Assembly: GCA_965602015.1 (NCBI GenBank)
Contig: OZ271918.1
Span: forward strand, 800,001 to 864,000
Length of the DNA stretch: 64,000 bases
From: Salinispira sp.
GTDB lineage: Bacteria; Spirochaetota; Spirochaetia; DSM-27196; Salinispiraceae
Direction of reading: 5' to 3'
The translations under genes and the position numbers were made by a program. This document shows positions 14,768 to 24,540 of this stretch, one piece after another (the first letter of the stretch is position 1; every line of letters begins with the position of its first letter). Below the pieces are notes generated by a model that saw only the letters and a program-made list of their open reading frames with translations, was not told where the DNA came from and ran no database searches.

Positions 14768-17398
14768 GTGGAAACTTCTAACAGCAATATGCCTACGGGC
14801 AGCAGAGTCTATCATCTCGACCGCGAGTGCTACGTAATTTACATGGGCAAGGGCGATCGCCAGTACCGGCCGTTCCTGCGCATCGGAACGAGTCCGTTTA
14901 TCCCATCGGATATTCGAAGGCATATCGGATCGGTTGTGCTTCCCGACCGGATGACCGGCGACTACTTTCAGGAAGCCGACTGCCTTGAGCAGCCCATTAC
15001 CCGCAACATGCATTATGTGGGCTCTCCCGAGCTGATAAAGGCGGTCCGCCATTTTATAAGAAAGGATGAAATCGCCCTTCAACCCATTCAGTCGGTGAAG
15101 GACAAACCCGAGGAAACCGGCGCCAAGGTTCACTTCTTTAAAGACGGCAATCTTCGGGTGTTTATGGACGGGCACCGCCTGTTCGACCTGGTTGAACGGG
15201 AGAAAAGCGATAACCACCAGGTTTATCAGTACCGGCGGCTTTGCGAGCTCATCGAAAGTGATACCCATGCTTTTACTGAGGCGGATTTTGAGGATCCCGG
15301 CTTTATTCCCATGGACGGACCCGAGGTGTTTGGATTTGCCAACGGCATTATTGAGATCCACGGTACCGGAGGGGCGAGCGCCGCGCGGCTGGTTTCCCGG
15401 CTGCTGCCCCTGACCCTTGTTCGGCGCTTCGGAGCCCGGGCCAACCGGGACGCCATGTTCTCCCTGGTGAAATGGCACCATGTGGAAAACCGTTCAATCG
15501 AATTCGTTCTCGAAGACCTGAACACCAAAACCGGCCCGACCAGCGACCTCGAGGCCGATCTGTTGGAAATGCTGGACCATATACACGCCAAGGCCAAGGC
15601 AAAACCCGGCCTCGATCTCCCAGCGCCCGCACCCGCCGCCTTTGTCAAAGCCGCATTCGGATCGCGAGTTGACAGTCAGGCCGACGGCCAAACCGACGCA
15701 CAGGCAACGGGCAAATCCGGCGGTGCAATTTTCAACCGCCTGGATCTGCAGGCCGGAGATCCAGGCGGTTCCACTGAACTCTTCCTCGCCGAGGGACAGA
15801 CCTGGCACGGAGGCCGTGAGCCGGCCTTGTTCACCGGGGTTCCGGTACACATCGGCAGTGCTGGAGACGGCCTGTGGAAAAAGGCCGTTTCAGACTCACA
15901 GGAGAGCCTTTCGCGCCTTATGGGCAGCCAGCACCTGGCGGCCATTGAGCAGTTTTCCGGCTATGACGAGAGCGCGAAGCAGCGGCACATCGGACAGCTT
16001 CTCAGTGAGAGCGAGGATCCGGTGGGCCGGCTGGCAGCCCTGCTGTGGATCTGGAACGATCAATATCTTCACGAAGTTGCCGGCGGGTCGCTGTTTAGCT
16101 CCGCGCAGATAGGCCTCATGGCCTCCCTGCAGGATGAGCAGATATTTCCCCTCATCGGCCGTCTGGTGGACAGCGGCGAAGGTTGGGTGACGGTGTACCG
16201 CCTCACCAAAGATATCACCCGAAGCGAACTGCGCCAGCGGCAGCAAATCGTCGAAAAAATCCAAAAACTCCTCGCCTGGAATGACCCCAGGTCCGACTAT
16301 GAAGCCGACCGCCAGCGGCTGAGCGATACCCTAAAAGCCCTCCTGGCTTCAAAGAGCCTTCACAGCAGCAAGCCGAAGCCCCACGCTGCCGCCGACTCTT
16401 CGGCGCAGTCGGACGAAGCCCAGCCCGCTGATTCCCCGCCGCCCCAAAGCGAAGCGGCTGGCGACGCCGAGGGACGTGCTAAAACCGGAGATGGTCAAAC
16501 CGGGGATGTTAAAACCGCCCAGGATAGCGAACGCGATTCTGCAAGCCGGGAAGGTTCGACGGCGTCAGGCGGTGAATCTTCTATCGCCGCAGGCCGCGGA
16601 ACCGCCGATGCCGCCGATCGTGGGTCTTCCGGAAGCGCTGCCTCAGACGCGATTGACGGATCCGGACGCTCGCCCTGGGGAAGCATACTCCTGGGCATCA
16701 TCCTCATAGGCATAATCGCCGTTCTTATATGGCTCATCTTTTTCAGGCAGCCCGTTCCCCCATCCGAAGCTGCCGGCGGCGGCCAGGCTGCGGCGCAGCA
16801 GGAGTCTCCCGCCGATCCGGACGGCGGGGAAACCGGAGCCGGCTCACAGGCTGCCGGACCGGGAAGCGCGGCCTCCGATGAGGAAGTCGGCGGCGTTTCC
16901 GGTGAAACCGGCGACGAAGATGCAGAGCAGCCCCCGGAAACCGGCGGCGCTGACGATGGCACAGATGATTCCAGCGAGGCTGCCGATGATCGGGACGGCG
17001 AAGTCTCAGGCGAAAGCGGTGATTCCCAAAGCGGCGAGGACAGAGCTCCGACGGCAATGGGAGATCAGGGCCCCCGGCGGCCGGAGGATGGCCCCGCAAT
17101 GCCCTTCGAGTCGGTCTGGACCATGGCGGAGATTCTGCGGGTGTCGAACTGGATAGCCGGCAACAACGGTTTTGCCCTTATCGGTCAGACCAGCGACCTG
17201 CGCAGAAACCCCGACTGGATTTTTACCGGGAACGTGTTTACCCTTCCCAACGGTGAAAGCTATGAGGTTCGCGACGGGGACATGATCTGGACCATCGCCG
17301 ATGAATATCTCAGCAATGAATTCGAGAATTCCGGCCTGAGTATTGAGGAATTCCGTGAGAATATTACTGACCTGAACTATAATCAAAATGGAAATTAG
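14768..17398 (+). CDS. large bitopic membrane protein with acidic low-complexity linkers and C-terminal LysM-like region
   Basis: single TM (ILLGIILIGIIAVLIWLIFF); D/E/G/S/A-rich flanks; NPDWIFTG and YEVRDGDMIWTIA LysM half-motifs; CTGACA-17-TATAGT upstream. Confidence 0.75.
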   Translation: METSNSNMPTGSRVYHLDRECYVIYMGKGDRQYRPFLRIGTSPFIPSDIRRHIGSVVLPDRMTGDYFQEADCLEQPITRNMHYVGSPELIKAVRHFIRKDEIALQPIQSVKDKPEETGAKVHFFKDGNLRVFMDGHRLFDLVEREKSDNHQVYQYRRLCELIESDTHAFTEADFEDPGFIPMDGPEVFGFANGIIEIHGTGGASAARLVSRLLPLTLVRRFGARANRDAMFSLVKWHHVENRSIEFVLEDLNTKTGPTSDLEADLLEMLDHIHAKAKAKPGLDLPAPAPAAFVKAAFGSRVDSQADGQTDAQATGKSGGAIFNRLDLQAGDPGGSTELFLAEGQTWHGGREPALFTGVPVHIGSAGDGLWKKAVSDSQESLSRLMGSQHLAAIEQFSGYDESAKQRHIGQLLSESEDPVGRLAALLWIWNDQYLHEVAGGSLFSSAQIGLMASLQDEQIFPLIGRLVDSGEGWVTVYRLTKDITRSELRQRQQIVEKIQKLLAWNDPRSDYEADRQRLSDTLKALLASKSLHSSKPKPHAAADSSAQSDEAQPADSPPPQSEAAGDAEGRAKTGDGQTGDVKTAQDSERDSASREGSTASGGESSIAAGRGTADAADRGSSGSAASDAIDGSGRSPWGSILLGIILIGIIAVLIWLIFFRQPVPPSEAAGGGQAAAQQESPADPDGGETGAGSQAAGPGSAASDEEVGGVSGETGDEDAEQPPETGGADDGTDDSSEAADDRDGEVSGESGDSQSGEDRAPTAMGDQGPRRPEDGPAMPFESVWTMAEILRVSNWIAGNNGFALIGQTSDLRRNPDWIFTGNVFTLPNGESYEVRDGDMIWTIADEYLSNEFENSGLSIEEFRENITDLNYNQNGN

Positions 17399-17504: not shown

Positions 17505-19493
17505 ATGTCAGATCTTAACCACAGCCCGAATATATTCCATCCTACGAAACCGTCAGCGGTGGGATCTCGCAACAGTATGGCGCAGGAAGGCCGGGATCAG
17601 AAAAAGGAGTACGACAACCTGGTCCAGGAGGAAACCAACAAAATCCTCAACGTCATCGAGTCCAAGCTTCCGAAGGAAGTTCTCGAGCGCCTCGATATCA
17701 CCGGCGGTCTGAAGGAAAAACTGTACAACTACTTCAACCAGAACTACCAGAACATGTTCAACCGGTATATCACCACCACTGAAGACGAGATGGTGAAGAA
17801 AATCCGGAACTTCATCGACAAGGAAGAGAACAAGGCTCTGGCCCGCTACACTCCGAAAGAAATCGCCAACATGCTTGACGAGATCGCCGGTGCCGACAAG
17901 TTCAATACCGGTGAAATCGAAAAATCCATTGTCAACATGTACGGTCACCTGCAGGGTCACATTCAGCGGGGGATGAACGACCTGGAGAACGACACCAACA
18001 GCCTGCTGAGGCAGAAAACCGACGTCGGTGCTTTTATCCGCGGGGAAAACGCCTACTCGGTTGTGAAATGTGCATTCAAAGACAGTGCGCATCGGCCGAA
18101 AACCGTTACCGATGTAAAGCTCTCGGTCAACATCCTGGACTCCGAGCTCATCAGTCCCATTTTCCAGTATCAGGCTACAGTTGAGTACCTCATAAAGGAT
18201 CAGATCAGCCGGACCATCACCAATCTCATCGATGCGGAAATTGAGAAATATCAGGACGAGCTGATCGACGAGGGCAAGGAAGAGCTCACTGACTCGGAAA
18301 TCATCTTCGAAAAGATGAGACGGGTGCCCACCTTCACCGATGACGACGCGGCGGACGAAACCAGCAAGCGCTACACCTTCCTGGCCAAGGATCTGATGGA
18401 CAAAATCGAAGGGCTCCGGGCGGAAATCGACCCCAGCCAGTTTGACCCCATCAATATCCGGGAAAACTTGAAGAAAATCATCGACATGGAAAATATCCGG
18501 AACCGGGGTTTTAATACGGTGGTCAATTCGCTTACCTCCATTCTGGACACGTCCAAGATGGGTTATCAGTACGTGGAAAACCTCAAGAATGCCCGGGAAC
18601 TTATCGTGCGGGAATATGAGGACACTGACAGCGAGCAGCTGCCCGACGAGCGCTACCAGATCCGGCTGAAGTATTTCGATGCCGATCAGCTCCACAAGGA
18701 ACAGTCTGCCTATGACGCCCAGCTGGAATCTTTCCGCCGGAAAATTCAGGAGCTGTACGATGTGGTCGAGCAGATATATCTGGACCGCCGAAGCCGCTTC
18801 AATGTCAATGATTACGAAGACCTGTCCCGCCGCCTCAAACGGCGCATCGTCCGACGAAAAGACGAGAGCCCCTTCGACGCATCGGGGGATCCCATCGTCG
18901 AGGAATTAAAAAGAGTGTGGAACGAGATCATCGCCCTCAAGGCCGATCTCACCGAGGTCGAGCGGCTGAATCAGACCTATCTCCACGAAAAGGAACTGTT
19001 CAAAAAAATGCTCAGCGCCATCAGCAAGAAGATCGAGAGCATTTTTGGCTTTCAGAATCCCCGTGAGCGGGTCATTCTGGACAACCGGGTGGGTTTCCTG
19101 CGCAAGCAGTTCGATAATTTCGACTACATCATCAACCCCTATCACATCCAGCCGGGGCTGCTGCTAGATATTGACATCGTCAGTATAAAGAGGAAGAAGT
19201 ACACCCTGGGCAGCATGGCCAACGTACTCAACGAATTCCTCCACGGCGTTTCCAAGGGCTTCCAGGATGCGGCGTTCGCGGCATTCAAGCGCCGCCGCTC
19301 AACGGTCCGCGACGATATCGGCATGAGTTTTTCCGCTGACTATGATCGCGGAGGCGAAATGGAAAACATGGGAACCGACACCATTGCGGCGCCCAAGAGC
19401 TCTTCGAGCAGCACCGCCACGGCAGTGAAGGGCCAGGCCGACGTTTCACCGGGTAAAGGCGATATATCCGGCGACGACCTGCAGGAGCTGTAG
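17505..19493 (+). CDS. cfpA: cytoplasmic filament protein A
   Basis: N-terminus [21 protein letters not shown] matches treponemal CfpA as I recall it; [18 protein letters not shown]; strong AAGGAGG RBS. Confidence 0.92.
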
Positions 19494-19498
19494 ACCTC

Positions 19499-20419
19499 AT
19501 GGTCGGTAATTTGGATCTTTTTTCCCGCAGGGCCGGTTTTAATTCGGCCCTGCGGCATTTCAAATTCACCACCGGCCTGATTGAACCGGTTACCCGGGGG
19601 GGCAATATCGCCGACCTCCTCAGGGAAGCCGAACTCAACGGGACAATTATCAAAGAACAGTTTTCACCAATACTTTCTGCGCTTCTCGTGGATAAATTCG
19701 AGTACTCCGTTGAGAGCCGGAACTGTCCGGTTCTTATAGATGATCCTTCAGACATCGTCGGCATTCTGAGCACATGGACGGCATTTCAAATCGTCATCGT
19801 CTATCAGCATCCCGAAGTCGGACCATTTCCCATCAATCCTCGCAATGCCGAATCCTGGGAGGCGGCGCTGCCCATACTCAAGGATGAGCTGATGGTGGCG
19901 TATATCAAAGACCTGAGCGGCAAGCACAGCAGCGAAGATGTCAAAGCGGCCCTCGGTTTGGTTCATGACGTTCTTGCGGGCCTATCGGTTGAAGCACCCA
20001 AAAGTTTTACCGCTTCGGGAGCTCCAAAACCCGCCCCGGCACCGGCCCCCAAACCCGCAGCTCAGGCTGCCGGGAAGCCTAAGGGTGCCTACCGGAAGAC
20101 GCCCCAGTACTCGGTTGTGGTAACCAATGAGCTTTTTCACAACGGAAATGTGGAGGCATGGAAACGCATTATTGCCTCCTATCGTCAGAGCTATCCTGAA
20201 CTGGACGTGCTTATCTACTACGACAATGAACGCATAAAGGACATAAACGCCCTGTTTAAGTGGGGGAAGGTCAAGCACGGAACGCCGATTCTTATATCCG
20301 TGGCCGGCACCAATATAAAAGACGTTTCCAAACTTCAGAGATATCTCTTCGAAGGTGCCAGTCCCCGTTTTGAAAATTTTCTCAAGGGAAGCATTGATCA
20401 GCCCCTTGAGCTCTTCTGA
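19499..20419 (+). CDS. two-domain protein with C-terminal HPr-like domain
   Basis: 5 nt after cfpA; Pro/Ala/Lys linker, then VVVTNELFHNG...DVLIYYDNERIKDINALFKWGKVKHGTPILISVAG aligning by eye with HPr (gene certain, fold inferred). Confidence 0.7.
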   Translation: MVGNLDLFSRRAGFNSALRHFKFTTGLIEPVTRGGNIADLLREAELNGTIIKEQFSPILSALLVDKFEYSVESRNCPVLIDDPSDIVGILSTWTAFQIVIVYQHPEVGPFPINPRNAESWEAALPILKDELMVAYIKDLSGKHSSEDVKAALGLVHDVLAGLSVEAPKSFTASGAPKPAPAPAPKPAAQAAGKPKGAYRKTPQYSVVVTNELFHNGNVEAWKRIIASYRQSYPELDVLIYYDNERIKDINALFKWGKVKHGTPILISVAGTNIKDVSKLQRYLFEGASPRFENFLKGSIDQPLELF

Positions 20420-20434
20420 TCCAGGAGCCATAGT

Positions 20435-23050
20435 ATGAACAGCTTTATCCATTTCGGCGACTCCCTGGGGCCCGAAAAGGGCAGCGAACGGGAAGTCCTC
20501 GGAAGCCGCGGCCGCCGTGCCGTATCCCTGGGCGAGCTGGAAATGCCCATATGCCCGGGTTTTGTGGTGCTTAATGAACAGGTCCAACGCCTTGCCGAAG
20601 ATCCCTCGCCGCTCATAAAACCGCTTAGCGAGTCGGTGGTCGCCATCGAAAAGGTCATGGACAAGAAATTCGGCGGCGGCGACAGTCCGCTTCTCCTGAA
20701 AGCCGTGGAATCTCCCATGCTGAACGTACAGAGTTCGCTGCCTTCGGTTCACCACATCGGGCTCACCGAGAAAACCGTAGAGATAGTCGGAAAAATGACC
20801 GGTGAGAAATTCGCGTATGCGGAATACGCTCATCTGCTGCAGAATATTCTCAAGCTTGAGGTTGCAGCCGTCGGTGAGGACGGCGAAAAAACCGCCTTTG
20901 AAGGCTACATAAAAAAACTCAAAAGCGCGAAGACTAAGGCCGCGGTAGTCAAGGCCATAAGTGAGAATCGGGACCTGCTTCCCGAAGAAGTCTATACCGA
21001 ACCGCTGTTTCAGCTCCAACACGTCATTCAACGGTTTTATCACGCATTGAAGCAGAGCCCCACCAGCGAGGATTCCGCGGTGATGGTTCAGGCCATGGTC
21101 TACGGGAATCTCGGCGAGAGTTCGGCTGCAGGGTATTTTTATACCCACCATATCGTCAGCGGCGAGGACCGGCTGCAGGGGCAGTTTTTTCCTTCGGCTT
21201 TTGACGAGTCGGCGAAAAATGGAAAAGCCATCGATAAAATCGACGCTGGAATCCTGGATTCTCTTAAACTGATAAGCCGGAAACTTGAGGACCACTTCAA
21301 AGAACTCCGCTTCGTGCGATTCGCCGTTGAGGCCGAGACCCTTTGGCTGGTTGATCAGTCATCGGTGCCGAACAAGTCCGCTCAGGCGGAAATCCGCACT
21401 CTGCTCGATCTGCTCGAACGGGGAGTGGTAAATAACGACTATCTCATCGAGAAGGTCAAACCTGGTCGGCTGTCGGAAATCCTTCACCCGACCCTCGATC
21501 CCGACTCGGTTGCTGACTTTCATTGCTTTGACGGCGGCATCGCCGGAGCCGTCGGGGCCGCCATCGGCCGGGTGTACTTCAGCGCCGAAGCCTTGGTGAC
21601 TGCCTTCAGACAGGCTCAACAGGCAGGCGAAGACACCAACATGATACTCGCCATGCCCGCCACCTTCGCGGGAGATGTGAAGGCGATCGAAATTGCCCAG
21701 GGTGTTCTCTCTTCCGAGGGCGGATACGCCTCTCACGCTCCGGTAGTTGCCCGGAGCTTGGGAAAAGTCGCCCTGGTGCGCACCGACGCGGTAATCGGCG
21801 CTAAGTCTCTTGATTTAAACGGAAAGGTCATAAAAGAAGGGGACTACCTCACCATGGACGTGCCGTATTACGAGGAACCCCGTTTATTCGTGGGCAAAGG
21901 AAGCCTCACCAAACCCAGTCAGGAAGAAAGCGGACTCCTTGAGTTCCTTGAGGTCGTCCAGACCAGGATATCGGGAATCGATGTTCACGCGAATGCAGAC
22001 CAGCCGCGGGATGCCCAGCTTTCCCGGAAATTCAACGCCCGGGGCATAGGGCTGTGTCGAACGGAACACATGTTTTTCGACGAGAGCCGCATAAACCGCT
22101 TCAGATACATGATTCTCGCAGATGACACGGAATCCCGGGTGAAATTTCTGGATGATCTGGCCAAGGATCAGACCGGTGATTTCTACGAGTTGCTGAAAAT
22201 TATGGACGGTTTTCCGGTAACCATTCGGCTGCTCGACGCGCCGCTTCACGAATTCCTTCCGGCCGACGATGCCGGCATGAAGGCCTTTATTGCCCAGGCA
22301 AAAAAGGACAAAACCGGGCTGACTGCCAAACACATTACCGAACGAAGCCAGCTTCTGAGAGAATTTAATCCCATGCTGGGCCATCGGGGTATTAGGGTTG
22401 CGATTTCCTATCCGGAAATCTACCGCATGCAGACCCGGGCGATTTTCGAAGCGGCATACAAGCTGCTTGATGAAGGTTTGGATCCCAAGCCTGAAATCAT
22501 GATTCCCCTGGTGATGAACCCCAATGAGCTGAAGGTAGTGCGCAACGGGAAGAAAATCGAAGGCAAACATATATTGGGCATCAGGGACATAGAAGAGCAG
22601 GTGCGTCGATCACATCCCGAAAAGAGCCTGGAGTACTCGGTGGGAACCATGATCGAATTACCCGCCGCGGCGTTAAACGCTTCGTCCATTGCCCGGTACG
22701 CCGACTTCTTTTCCTTCGGAACCAACGATCTGACACAGACCACCTACGGCATCAGCAGGGACGACTTCAATACCTTCTTCTCGGACTACACCGAGTTGGA
22801 CCTGCTGCCCGCCAATCCCTTCAAAGTACTCCAGCCGCAGGTTAAGGAGCTTGTGCAAACCGCTGCCCTGCGCGGACGTATGGTGCGGCCCGATTTGAAG
22901 CTCGGACTGTGCGGTGAACACGGAGCCGAGCCGCAGAACATCGATTTTATCGCCGAGACCGGATTGAACTACGTGTCGGTATCGCCCTACGGCATTCCGA
23001 TTGCAAAACTGGCCATTGCACAAATGAATTTACAGGCAGCCAAAGGCTGA
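20435..23050 (+). CDS. pyruvate phosphate dikinase-like PEP-utilising protein with degenerate nucleotide-binding domain
   Basis: GGYASHAPVVAR phospho-His motif; GIGLCRTEHMFF, IRLLDAPLHEFLP, NPMLGHRG, FSFGTNDLTQ, GLCGEHG intact; N-terminal ATP-site motifs substituted. Confidence 0.9.
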   Translation: MNSFIHFGDSLGPEKGSEREVLGSRGRRAVSLGELEMPICPGFVVLNEQVQRLAEDPSPLIKPLSESVVAIEKVMDKKFGGGDSPLLLKAVESPMLNVQSSLPSVHHIGLTEKTVEIVGKMTGEKFAYAEYAHLLQNILKLEVAAVGEDGEKTAFEGYIKKLKSAKTKAAVVKAISENRDLLPEEVYTEPLFQLQHVIQRFYHALKQSPTSEDSAVMVQAMVYGNLGESSAAGYFYTHHIVSGEDRLQGQFFPSAFDESAKNGKAIDKIDAGILDSLKLISRKLEDHFKELRFVRFAVEAETLWLVDQSSVPNKSAQAEIRTLLDLLERGVVNNDYLIEKVKPGRLSEILHPTLDPDSVADFHCFDGGIAGAVGAAIGRVYFSAEALVTAFRQAQQAGEDTNMILAMPATFAGDVKAIEIAQGVLSSEGGYASHAPVVARSLGKVALVRTDAVIGAKSLDLNGKVIKEGDYLTMDVPYYEEPRLFVGKGSLTKPSQEESGLLEFLEVVQTRISGIDVHANADQPRDAQLSRKFNARGIGLCRTEHMFFDESRINRFRYMILADDTESRVKFLDDLAKDQTGDFYELLKIMDGFPVTIRLLDAPLHEFLPADDAGMKAFIAQAKKDKTGLTAKHITERSQLLREFNPMLGHRGIRVAISYPEIYRMQTRAIFEAAYKLLDEGLDPKPEIMIPLVMNPNELKVVRNGKKIEGKHILGIRDIEEQVRRSHPEKSLEYSVGTMIELPAAALNASSIARYADFFSFGTNDLTQTTYGISRDDFNTFFSDYTELDLLPANPFKVLQPQVKELVQTAALRGRMVRPDLKLGLCGEHGAEPQNIDFIAETGLNYVSVSPYGIPIAKLAIAQMNLQAAKG

Positions 23051-23081
23051 GGCCGGCGGGCTGCTTCGGCACACAAACGTT

Positions 23082-23116
23082 AAAAACCGCGGGGTGCAAT
23101 CACTCCGCGGTTTTTT
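23082..23116. terminator. bidirectional intrinsic terminator
   Basis: AAAAA-CCGCGGGGTG-CAAT-CACTCCGCGG-TTTTTT between convergent genes. Confidence 0.8.
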
Positions 23117-23921
23117 CTATTTCATCACATAAACCGGACAGGGCTTTCAGCAGATATAGTTTGATGAGGGTCTCCGGAACGTAGCAGCTCTTGGGAAAAT
23201 TCGACAGGAGGAACATGAGGTTTTTCTCTGCGGCCGAGCGTGCTCCCGGGCATATCAGGCCTTGCTGTCTTTCCATTTTTAACAGGCCTCGATAAATCGC
23301 CCGGTCGAGGGAGGTGCTGCCGAGGCGATATAGCTTTTGGGCTTTCGCTTCGTCACCGATGTATACCTGATGCTCTTTTGGTTTGATCAGGAGGTTTTCA
23401 TAGAAGGCCTGGGCAAAGTCCCGTATACCCCGGATTTGCCGGTGCTGGATGGCCGACCCGGGCATTTCTCCGCAAAGAGCCAGGCTTTCGATGACGTGAG
23501 ACAGCTTGCGCATGAGAGCCCGGTAGCGCTGCCGCATGCTGCCCTCTTGCCGAAGATAAATCTTATCCATGCCTTCAACGTAGTAGCTGTGAATAAGATC
23601 GAGAATCATATCGTAAATATTGGCAATTCTCGCCTGGGTACCCAGGGAGTACCCCGAGTCCTGGGTGCTTTCGGGCTGGCTTTCCTCGTTTTCCCGGGAT
23701 TCGGCGCTTGCTTCGAGGCTCTCCTGGTATGCCAGTATGGCCTGGTACGCTTCAGTCAGCCGAATGGTCATCTGGTGTGACCAGTCGCTTCGGTGGCTGT
23801 TCAGATCCGGGTGATACTTTATCAGCAGCCGTTTGTACGAGGCGTTGATTTCCGCGGGAGAAGCGCTTTGCTCAATTTGGAGTATTTCGTAGGCTGCACT
23901 GACTTTCATCACTTTTTTCAT
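23100..23921 (-). CDS. J-domain (DnaJ-like) protein
   Basis: AYEILQI...EINASYKRLLIKYHPD...LTEAY; unknown helical C-terminal region. Confidence 0.85.
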   Translation of the reverse strand: MKKVMKVSAAYEILQIEQSASPAEINASYKRLLIKYHPDLNSHRSDWSHQMTIRLTEAYQAILAYQESLEASAESRENEESQPESTQDSGYSLGTQARIANIYDMILDLIHSYYVEGMDKIYLRQEGSMRQRYRALMRKLSHVIESLALCGEMPGSAIQHRQIRGIRDFAQAFYENLLIKPKEHQVYIGDEAKAQKLYRLGSTSLDRAIYRGLLKMERQQGLICPGARSAAEKNLMFLLSNFPKSCYVPETLIKLYLLKALSGLCDEIEKTAE

Positions 23922-23988: not shown

Positions 23989-24540
23989 ATGGGATTGCTT
24001 GAAACATTTAAGGCGTATCAGGAACATCGACTGCCCGACCAGTACGGGTACATCCTCTCGGTTTTTTACCATAATCATTCGACGTATACCCGGTATGAGC
24101 TCATTTCCTTCGGAAACGTCAAGGACATCTATACTTCCGATGAGGGGCTGGTTTTTTCCGCCGAGGGCAGGAAGCTTTATCTTCTCGTTCAGCCGGCGGG
24201 CTATCCTACAAGCCACATTGAACCGGCATACAGGCCCGATGCCGAGCGAATACCCTATCGCTTCAAGGAGCTCATAGATTACACCACGAACCGCCAGGAT
24301 CATGTATTTATCGGGGCCGAGCCCATTGTCACCTACACGAACTTCACTGTGCTCAAGCCAATCGGTCAGGATGTAAGCTATGTTTTTTTCCCCACGGAAA
24401 CTGTCAAGGAAGACATCCTCGAGTTTTTCCGAATTTCAATATGGAAACAGGCAAGGGTTCCCCAGTCCGACGCACGGAAACTGCTTGACCCCATAGGCAA
24501 GGTCTTCGACAAGTTGCGGCTATCCGACGGATCGTTTTAG
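23989..24540 (+). CDS. hypothetical protein
   Basis: GGAGG RBS; 183-aa ORF filling the gap between neighbouring genes. Confidence 0.75.
   Translation: MGLLETFKAYQEHRLPDQYGYILSVFYHNHSTYTRYELISFGNVKDIYTSDEGLVFSAEGRKLYLLVQPAGYPTSHIEPAYRPDAERIPYRFKELIDYTTNRQDHVFIGAEPIVTYTNFTVLKPIGQDVSYVFFPTETVKEDILEFFRISIWKQARVPQSDARKLLDPIGKVFDKLRLSDGSF

Follow-up and report, generated by a model that had tools for sequence, protein, structure and literature searches.

Why does cfpA, the gene for the spirochaete cytoplasmic filament protein, share a locus with a gene of the TP0747/TDE0843 family and a gene resembling pyruvate phosphate dikinase (PPDK), and could the latter two form a PEP-driven phosphorelay, as an earlier note on this DNA proposed? 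In the window, a 64,000-nucleotide stretch of a Salinispira sp. contig, ORF1 is cfpA (NF040882, 1118 bits against a cut-off of 500, positions 1-605), and ORF2 and ORF3 follow it on the same strand after gaps of 5 and 15 nt (Table 1). RBS-like purine-rich runs precede all three starts (3/3), and the hairpin beyond ORF3 was equalled by 0/200 shuffles; the reading of the three genes as one unit with a strong terminator is borne out. Because A/T runs flank the hairpin at either end and it overlaps a convergent J-domain gene at its stop, the terminator is probably bidirectional. Five sigma-70-type sites were found where 4.0 were expected by chance, among them the weak possible promoter listed. The window has no listed RNA holder.

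Table 1. Features of the cfpA locus; positions are those of the window.
Feature	Positions	Strand	Basis
cfpA, cytoplasmic filament protein, 662 aa	17505..19493	+	NF040882 profile match
ORF2, TP0747/TDE0843 family, 306 aa	19499..20419	+	PF27497 TP_0747_N; AF2 model
ORF3, pseudo-dikinase, TP0746/TDE0844 family, 871 aa	20435..23050	+	TIGR01828, below cut-off; PDB PPDK match
Possible sigma-70-type promoter, weak	17355..17383	+	match 10/12
ORF2 residues 69-162, first predicted HPr-fold domain	19703..19984	+	VIA structure comparison
ORF2 residues 200-289, second predicted HPr-fold domain, best-conserved part of ORF2	20096..20365	+	AF2, Foldseek, VIA
His214 codon, candidate phospho-acceptor before first helix of C-domain	20138..20140	+	AF2 secondary structure, alignment
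ORF3 residues 1-345, remodelled nucleotide-binding domain	20435..21469	+	canonical site lost
His434 codon, catalytic His of swivelling domain	21734..21736	+	GGYASH434APVVARSLG; PF00391
ORF3 residues 505-871, PEP/pyruvate barrel, intact site	21947..23047	+	PF02896
Intrinsic terminator hairpin	23082..23115	+	15 pairs, -23.4 kcal/mol, z -8.3

A survey of cfpA neighbourhoods across 151 Spirochaetota genomes, the check that the note had proposed, found the ORF2 and ORF3 families in an identical set of 56 genomes and cfpA in 55 of these, against 0/95 of the remaining genomes; in the sole exception (G044), a contig end lies 55 nt upstream of ORF2. The co-occurrence persists where the genes are unlinked, ORF2 and ORF3 lying apart in 4 genomes and cfpA apart in 11. 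The three genes are inherited together, usually as neighbours, and constitute a conserved module, which makes ORF2 and ORF3 named candidate partners of CfpA. Treponemes have the same genes in the same order (TP0748-TP0747-TP0746 and TDE0842-0844); TP0746 (ppdK) and TP0748 (cfpA) are recorded at one locus in T. pallidum, as the note had expected, and TDE0842-0844 are repressed together in T. denticola (PMC3914990). In the literature searched, the second gene of these loci is left as a hypothetical protein and the third is taken for an active PPDK, but by alignment and genome survey the treponemal cfpA-adjacent "PPDK" belongs to the ORF3 type, in line with the suspicion of a conserved, mis-annotated system. 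A split ORF2 was seen at 1 of 80 metagenome loci (L152).

Over its full length ORF3 matches PPDKs in the PDB (E 8e-142), and it has the same three-domain layout, swivelling His and PEP-barrel residues as the dikinases (TIGR01828; PDB 1DIK/1KBL, 5JVJ); however, its TIGR01828 score of 633 bits lies below the equivalog cut-off of 843, its nucleotide-site residues are lost, and Ala or Ser stands in for the regulatory Thr at position -2 from the His (Thr in 0/132 pseudo-dikinases). Pfam gives PF00391 at E 1.3e-10 and PF02896 at E 6.6e-70, with PPDK_N merely at E 0.022. Taking columns invariant in 15 canonical PPDKs and counting a column as kept when 90% or more of the 124 main-clade sequences retain it, we found 17/111 kept in the nucleotide domain, 15/35 in the linker and His domain and 85/107 in the PEP barrel. 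We take K22, G101/M103, Q240, D321, Q335 and R337 (C. symbiosum numbering) to be nucleotide-site residues of PPDK. The equivalents of R92, Q240 and E323 occur in 0/132 pseudo-dikinases against 15/15 canonical PPDKs, E323 being charge-reversed to R/K in 129/132; K22 gives way to Arg, a conservative change, and Q335 persists (132/132). SMPGM is found in 0 and the Arg337 equivalent in 1 of the 14 pseudo-dikinases in the alignment shown. According to PMC5507339, Arg95 and Glu324, equivalent to R92 and E323, bind ATP directly. His434, which lies together with ORF2 His214 exactly where both had been placed before, is kept in 132/132. As judged from these alignments, the nucleotide-site residues are lost family-wide while the His site is kept, and the third gene does retain its phospho-His and PEP domains while lacking ATP-site residues, as claimed. 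The pseudo-dikinases form a clade of their own, apart from a canonical paralogue that in this genome lies at G000:C1:2366590-2369226 and scores 1338 bits with TIGR01828; in a tree, 32/32 of them grouped on a long stem (node support after re-rooting 0.14 to 0.90, on which we place no weight), and 53/56 genomes with the module have a second PPDK-type gene.

It is hardly credible that ORF3 is an ordinary divergent pyruvate phosphate dikinase, as annotated. The full-length PPDK architecture, the mild change at K22 and the retained Q335 would suit that activity, which PMC10013896 assumes in making TP0746 the final, ATP-yielding reaction of glycolysis in T. pallidum, but of the 111 invariant columns of the nucleotide domain 94 have been lost, E323 is reversed and most module-bearing genomes hold the second gene. 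The 1.14-Mb genome G088 bears on both sides: no pyruvate kinase was found in it and its ORF3-type gene is its only PPDK-type gene, as an ordinary dikinase would have it, but it has another route from PEP to pyruvate, with GTP-PEPCK and OadA both above cut-off in profile searches. Since the orthologue in G088 has also lost the nucleotide site, and this genome does without pyruvate kinase while encoding PEPCK and OadA, TP0746 is very probably mis-annotated as an ATP-making dikinase, which holds even if the relay fails. Its standing annotation as the ATP-forming last glycolytic step is thereby challenged; if this is true, the annotated dikinase of the syphilis spirochaete would not produce ATP.

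The PEP site tells a different story in two parts of the family. In the main clade R542, R598, R651, E741, N764, D765 and C826 are each present in 124/124 sequences, including ORF3, and the PPDK PEP-site residues R561, R617, E745, N768, D769 and C831 (C. symbiosum numbering) are matched in 124/124. In 8 full-length ORF3 sequences from a divergent clade, which includes three proteins labelled Deltaproteobacteria, the site has decayed (R561 equivalent 0/8, D769 0/8, C831 3/8), but His434 (8/8) and His214 (11/11) are retained, so that conservation of both histidines does not require a functional PEP site. The label "PEP-driven" may fit the main clade, where the site is intact in sequence, and is not universal for the family, the Arg561 and Asp769 equivalents being missing in 8/8 divergent sequences. 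The remodelled N-domain has a conserved set of its own (R25, K89, S93, H106, F256, R292 and Q308), of which R25, K89, R292, Q308, H106 and S93 each occur in at least 97% of the 132 pseudo-dikinases. These six basic or polar residues could hold an anion, and it is conceivable, if improbable, that ORF3 uses PEP to phosphorylate phosphate (to PPi) or another small molecule there, with ORF2 as a regulator or tether: acceptor domains have been swapped in other swivel-His enzymes, namely rifampicin phosphotransferase and PigC, and PEP-to-pyruvate turnover would be useful in G088, which is without pyruvate kinase. Set against a small-molecule acceptor are the Arg337 equivalent in just 1/14, the same N-domain set in the clade without a PEP site, where turnover could not run, and the invariant His214, which it leaves unexplained.

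The AF2 model of ORF2 (mean pLDDT 81.8) comprises a four-helix N-terminus, a His-less HPr fold, a Pro/Ala/Lys linker, a His-bearing HPr fold and a conserved C-terminal tail. For the C-domain (pLDDT 94.3), HPr fills the first seven Foldseek rows (lowest E 4.8e-3), and VIA gave Z 8.1, rmsd 2.0 and 78/85 residues aligned, with rows 1-25 all HPr or Crh entries; its predicted fold is the beta-alpha-beta-beta-alpha-beta-alpha open sandwich of HPr, and the expectation that the middle gene ends in an HPr-looking domain with a conserved His agrees with this model and with His214 in 173/173 aligned homologues. Residues 69-162 are likewise predicted to be an HPr open sandwich (VIA against E. coli HPr with the predicted model, Z 10.3, rmsd 2.0, 80/85), a second copy absent from the earlier note; no His is conserved ahead of its first helix (the most at any one position from 76 to 89 is 13/167 sequences), and its role is probably to bind protein. 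In this it resembles Crh and other His-less or regulatory HPr-fold proteins, but in ORF2 the His-less fold is fused in tandem with a His-bearing copy and the four-helix N-terminus, and there is no conserved Ser46-type site (the C-domain equivalent is Asp in 150/173 and Asn in 23/173). An HPr fold does not by itself amount to phosphorylation, because the C-domain Z of 8.1 is about the level of common alpha/beta sandwiches and the His-less domain scores better.

The placing of His214 on the HPr His is tentative. In six VIA rows model residue 3 falls on HPr residue 1, which, if gapless, puts His214 on His15 (a fit within one residue); pairwise sequence alignment to the three HPr proteins of this genome places the HPr His on His214 in 1/3 and on E219 in 2/3. 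We take the HPr active-site residues after His15 to be Arg17 and Pro18, in the motif G-[LI]-H-x-R-P; ORF2 reads ELFHNGN, with G-N in their place and helix A about one turn longer. Among 93 sequences 38 positions of ORF2 are invariant, 33 of them beyond residue 200, and the entire C-domain surface is near-invariant. By the curated model ORF2 is not a member of the HPr family, as it lacks the HARP motif and gave no match to PF00381 (0/42 C-domains, with solely sub-threshold Pfam matches); the likeness is invisible to Pfam and PDB sequence searches, and hhalign of ORF2 against three HPr proteins gave E 0.014 at a probability of 3%. ESM Atlas returned the family itself and one 0.83 lead. NusA (E 0.06), folliculin and an RxLR effector, which came up in PDB sequence searches, were treated as chance matches, and most short "stand-alone" C-domain proteins proved to be fragments or to have mis-called starts; several of them cluster with full-length members.

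ORF3 and ORF2 resemble Enzyme I and HPr of the PTS (TIGR01417, PF00381) in pairing a PEP barrel and swivel-His donor with a predicted HPr-fold partner that has a His before helix A, encoded by adjacent genes, but the unit is without EII genes and is tied to a cytoskeletal gene. By the curated model ORF3 is not an Enzyme I either (123 bits under a cut-off of 342, the match confined to the barrel), and its N-terminus aligns to the PPDK nucleotide domain, not to the EI N-terminal helical HPr-binding domain; it descends from PPDK, with a remodelled ATP-grasp domain replacing the EI helical domain. To our knowledge HPr is the sole protein acceptor of PEP-barrel/swivel-His enzymes, and the product of the neighbouring gene is predicted to have an HPr fold, with an invariant His just ahead of helix A; we therefore favour, with a probability of roughly 55%, the reading that ORF3 is a PPDK descendant acting as an Enzyme-I-like PEP:protein phosphotransferase that passes phosphate from PEP via His434 to ORF2 His214, likely on the CfpA filament. 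EI and PPDK are homologous (PMC5371819). Counted against the relay were the histidines kept in the clade without a PEP site, the G-N replacement and the agreement of 1/3 alignments; of the relay as proposed earlier, the conserved module, the lost nucleotide site and the predicted HPr fold stand, while the PEP site is not universal and both proteins fall outside the curated EI and HPr families. Phosphorylation of His214 by the ordinary PTS, through Enzyme I or HPr, with ORF3 draining to pyruvate or merely reading the state, would account for histidines without a PEP site, the reaction being reversible, and HPr and an EI-sized PEP-utiliser are encoded in 5/5 genomes tested (that of G088 passes TIGR01417). 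Such an input is nonetheless highly improbable, as ORF2 tracks ORF3 exactly in distribution and presumably lacks the HPr residues that EI recognises.

A purely structural role deserves more weight, although we consider it unlikely: ORF3, as a barrel dimer, and ORF2 would bridge or anchor the filament ribbon, the histidines would be kept for interfaces, and PEP, if bound, would act at most allosterically. The divergent clade retains the module and both histidines without a PEP site and has two cfpA copies at 5/11 loci, and the near-invariant ORF2 C-domain surface would suit an interface. TDE0844 and CfpA are among 16 major envelope-fraction bands, which list no further glycolytic enzyme and do not include TDE0843 (PMC3931704), and in T. 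pallidum the transcription of TP0746 ranks with the highest; the bands were also counted for the relay, and such abundance suits a structural part as well. The title of a 2004 tomography paper names unidentified bridging and anchoring components, whose identity was not found in the literature searched; nor, in that literature, mostly without subscription papers, was a degenerate PPDK or HPr fold at the cfpA locus described. A pure scaffold, however, needs none of the seven PEP-site residues, catalytic Cys included, that the main clade keeps, and would leave it to coincidence that, beside a swivel-His enzyme, an HPr fold caps the start of its helix A with an invariant His. The ORF2/ORF3 pair is probably also a stoichiometric filament component.

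Were the relay to operate, PEP would very probably phosphorylate His434 with release of pyruvate, by analogy with PPDK and EI chemistry; because this step would be reversible, the phospho-state would track the PEP/pyruvate ratio. We lean toward the remodelled ORF3 N-domain docking the ORF2 C-domain at the former place of ATP, like the EI helical domain, with the swivel then reaching His214. With rather less assurance, and at slightly unfavourable odds, the helical N-terminus and His-less fold of ORF2 may tether it to CfpA or its anchor, its phospho-state adjusting how the ribbon bundles, is anchored or is remodelled in connection with division; according to PMC3398590, T. denticola requires the filament to divide normally and for its normal chromosome state and infectivity. 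If transfer is real, a phosphotransferase system would have re-evolved from PPDK, coupling carbon flux directly to the cytoskeleton. The full picture is tentative and rather less likely than not: a second, independently evolved PEP phosphotransferase system, in which a dikinase turned protein-histidine kinase docks an HPr-fold acceptor in its old ATP pocket, built on the cytoskeleton so that the PEP/pyruvate ratio sets bundling and division, with ORF2 and ORF3 as the bridges within the treponemal ribbon, and with glycolysis in T. pallidum finished via PEP carboxykinase and oxaloacetate decarboxylase, not PPDK. The T. pallidum two-hybrid table of PMC2386257 is uninformative: TP0747 has five preys there, all low-scoring and promiscuous, TP0748 has one, and TP0746 has no row. 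Co-folding of ORF3 1-500 with ORF2 196-306 scored 0.30 and 0.29 (mark 0.32) and was counted neither for nor against the relay.

cfpA, the middle gene (ORF2) and the PPDK-like gene (ORF3) had been proposed in the earlier note to form one unit, and the sequence confirmed the three ORFs, their spacing of 5 and 15 nt and the terminator; the terminator hairpin scores -23.4 kcal/mol (z -8.3), and none of 200 shuffles was as good. A match to NF040882 at 1118 bits identifies ORF1 as CfpA. Pfam and NCBIfam profile searches returned no match for ORF2, which carries PF27497 (TP_0747_N) of newer Pfam. Solved PPDKs align with ORF3 over its entire length in a PDB sequence search (E 8e-142), and its score on the PPDK profile, 633 bits, is below the cut-off of 843. 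ORF3 is a spare paralogue in the Salinispira genome, because elsewhere this genome has its own PPDK (1338 bits), a pyruvate kinase and three HPr genes, as well as four further PEP-utilisers, two of them of Enzyme I size.

Genes of the cfpA locus and its flanks in the window
Feature	Position	Strand	Remarks
MinD/ParA-type ATPase, 379 aa	13534-14673	-	two genes upstream of cfpA
876-aa protein	14768-17398	+	upstream of cfpA; relatives in 42/100 loci
cfpA (ORF1), 662 aa	17505-19493	+	
ORF2, 306 aa	19499-20419	+	TP0747/TDE0843 family
ORF3, 871 aa	20435-23050	+	TP0746/TDE0844 family
J-domain protein	23100-23921	-	convergent on the operon terminator; 43/100 loci
183-aa gene	23989-24540	+	hypothetical; conserved downstream, 38/100 loci

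ORF2 relatives were found in 531 of 599 stretches scanned. The best 80 of these 531 were kept, a set weighted towards close kin. In 71 of its 73 loci having at least 400 nt upstream, cfpA is the gene directly upstream of ORF2; ORF3 lies no more than 400 nt downstream in 79 of the 80, and at 406 nt in the remaining one. In an evenly drawn sample of 151 Spirochaetota genomes, the suggested survey of cfpA neighbourhoods bore out the co-occurrence of the three genes: ORF2 is present in 56 genomes, and the ORF3 profile, with a clean gap between 56 genomes at 1079 bits or more and all others at 746 bits or less, picks out the identical 56. cfpA was found in 55, every one among these; in the sole exception the contig stops 55 nt upstream of ORF2. 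None of the three genes was found in the other 95 genomes. As read from the survey tables, ORF2 sits beside ORF3 in 52/56 genomes, and cfpA adjoins ORF2 in 43/56, with two assembly breaks and 11 genomes in which it lies apart; since these 11 keep all three genes, co-inheritance outlasts lost linkage. Related genomes are not independent of each other, and no statistical test is claimed. One genome (G005) has three cfpA copies (contigs C97, C69 and C102), one only beside the ORF2-ORF3 pair. The statement that treponemes have an annotated PPDK near cfpA proved correct: the same trio is reported in T. pallidum at TP0748 and TP0746 (PMC8525777), and joint repression of TDE0842-0844 is described in T. 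denticola (PMC3914990).

Full-length ORF3 sequences, 124 from the main clade and 8 from a divergent clade, were aligned with 15 canonical PPDKs from the same phylum; fragments below about 800-840 aa were left out, and the sequence sources overlap. PPDK sites are numbered as in C. symbiosum, through the ORF3-PPDK alignment. K22, R92, Q240 and E323 are all retained in 15/15 canonical PPDKs. The K22 position is Arg in all 132 pseudo-dikinases, the SMPGM loop is missing in 14/14 of those shown, and R337 is kept in 1/14; these features, like Q240, belong to the nucleotide site. R92, Q240 and E323 are absent from 132/132 (the E323 position is R/K in 129), which makes it most improbable that ORF3 is a true dikinase. 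The equivalents of R92 and E323 are described as contacting ATP directly (PMC5507339). His434 is conserved in 132/132, and PEP-site residues R542, R598, R651, E741, N764, D765 and C826 in 124/124 main-clade sequences. Columns invariant in canonical PPDKs are kept by the main clade at 17/111 in the nucleotide domain, 15/35 in the linker and His domain and 85/107 in the barrel. The remodelled N-domain is not simply decaying, because it has its own set conserved at 97% or more (R25, K89, S93, H106, E130, F256, R292 and W304). Judging from these residues, ORF3 is not an ordinary dikinase. A second PPDK-type match occurs in 53 of the 56 module genomes; residues were inspected in 12 such paralogues and in three genes from module-free genomes. 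His106 is specific to the pseudo-dikinases (at least 97% of 132), is Leu in 15/15 canonical PPDKs and may be a second phospho-site. In one lineage (loci L098 and L099, genomes G051 and G042), ORF3 is longer, at 965 aa, and its N-terminus has diverged further.

The AF2 model of ORF2 (80 sequences, pLDDT 81.8) comprises four helices (11-66), a domain at 69-162, a disordered linker and a domain at 200-289, both domains having beta-alpha-beta-beta-alpha-beta-alpha order. The first superposes on HPr in this predicted model (Z 10.3, rmsd 2.0, 80/85) and has no conserved His ahead of its first helix. The second, folded by itself, reached pLDDT 94.3; its seven best Foldseek matches are all HPr, none at E <= 0.001, and in VIA the first 25 entries are HPr/Crh (best Z 8.1, rmsd 2.0, 78/85), against 6.5 for the best unrelated one. 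Mean column conservation is 0.80 in the second domain versus 0.48 in the first. His214 lies directly before helix A in the model and is present in 173/173 sequences, and the motif E.FH.G occurs in 237 of the 240 proteins among the matches listed. The HPr-looking C-terminal domain and its conserved His thus stand as a predicted fold; that His214 is in register with the HPr active His is likely on the model, the register coming from VIA end points alone and pairwise sequence alignment agreeing for 1/3 HPr proteins. The residues following His214 differ from those after the HPr active His.

Because the barrel and His are kept and the nucleotide site is lost, the remaining half-reaction would be PEP + His434 <-> pyruvate + phospho-His434, the part described as shared by PPDK and Enzyme I (PMC5371819). 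The swivel would carry the phosphate to the former ATP cleft, where the acceptor would be co-inherited ORF2, with its predicted HPr fold and invariant His214 at the acceptor position. We give this PEP -> His434 -> His214 relay a probability of about 0.55; a small molecule accepting the phosphate instead is unlikely. The pair may be likened to Enzyme I-HPr in its way of working, but ORF3 and ORF2 fall outside that system by both membership tests, and ORF3 falls outside PPDK as well.

A 107-aa protein match labelled Deltaproteobacteria led to 11 metagenome loci (L129-L139, e.g., L134:3054-11031), two more proteins of which bear the same NCBI label. In 5/11 the order is cfpA'-ORF2-ORF3-cfpA, and in two loci put to the test NF040882 is passed by both flanking copies. 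The claim that the third gene lacks ATP-site residues and keeps the phospho-His and PEP domains holds for the whole main clade and fails here for the PEP site: 8/8 full-length divergent ORF3s lack the equivalents of R561 and D769, 3 keep C831, and only 49/107 barrel columns remain. R25/K89/F256/Q308 are nevertheless intact, as is His434 with its motif, and His214 is present in 11/11. PEP input is thus dispensable in this one lineage, and the conserved core is the remodelled N-domain, His domain and ORF2 C-domain, because these are kept where the PEP site has decayed. The pattern fits a constrained interface among the three; a structural role, or phosphate from a different donor, would fit it just as well. 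Retention of both histidines beside a decayed PEP site is in keeping with a scaffold without phosphotransfer, a less likely alternative to the relay, and would also allow phosphate entry from the ordinary PTS, which we consider very unlikely.

TDE0844, from gene order apparently the pseudo type, is reported as band 1 among the 16 major proteins of the T. denticola envelope fraction, each above 1% of protein, and co-fractionates with CfpA and flagellins; no other glycolytic enzyme is among those 16 bands, and neither is TDE0843 (PMC3931704). The proposed link of the module to filament behavior comes from co-inheritance and co-fractionation. T. denticola cells that have lost CfpA are reported to grow as filaments, to have condensed chromosomes and to be no longer infective (PMC3398590).

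The TP0746 product is described as most likely converting PEP, AMP and PPi to pyruvate and ATP (PMC10013896); this annotation as an ATP-making dikinase is probably wrong. G088, a reduced genome of 1.14 Mb in one contig and 99% complete, appears from its size and gene order to resemble the T. pallidum group. No pyruvate kinase was found in it, and its ORF3 copy, without the same nucleotide-site residues (TIGR01828, 609 bits), is its only PPDK-type gene. Enzyme I and HPr are also encoded. GTP-PEPCK and OadA, both above cut-off (G088:C1:64388-66136 and 141081-142181), may offer another way to complete glycolysis, in which pyruvate is likely reached by PEP -> oxaloacetate -> pyruvate.

The module genes themselves are known, under other labels. 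In the literature searched, neither the lost ATP site nor HPr folds are described for the cfpA locus; the original cfpA papers (1996-2004), outside that search, may discuss the operon. The module is real, conserved and mis-annotated, and the variant of the PTS principle is new, the relay itself being proposed and unproven.

Three CfpA histidines (148, 152 and 547) are invariant in 125/125 sequences and may be a further phospho-acceptor or a metal site. Upstream of cfpA, the 876-aa protein carries conserved domains at both ends, the C-terminal one resembling LysM on visual inspection, along with acidic linkers and a single transmembrane segment; it is a candidate membrane or wall anchor. The MinD/ParA-type ATPase, a candidate positioning factor, has relatives in 31 of 100 loci searched, many of them too short to show the gene. 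A second lineage (L069-L093) has a different conserved gene pair upstream of cfpA.
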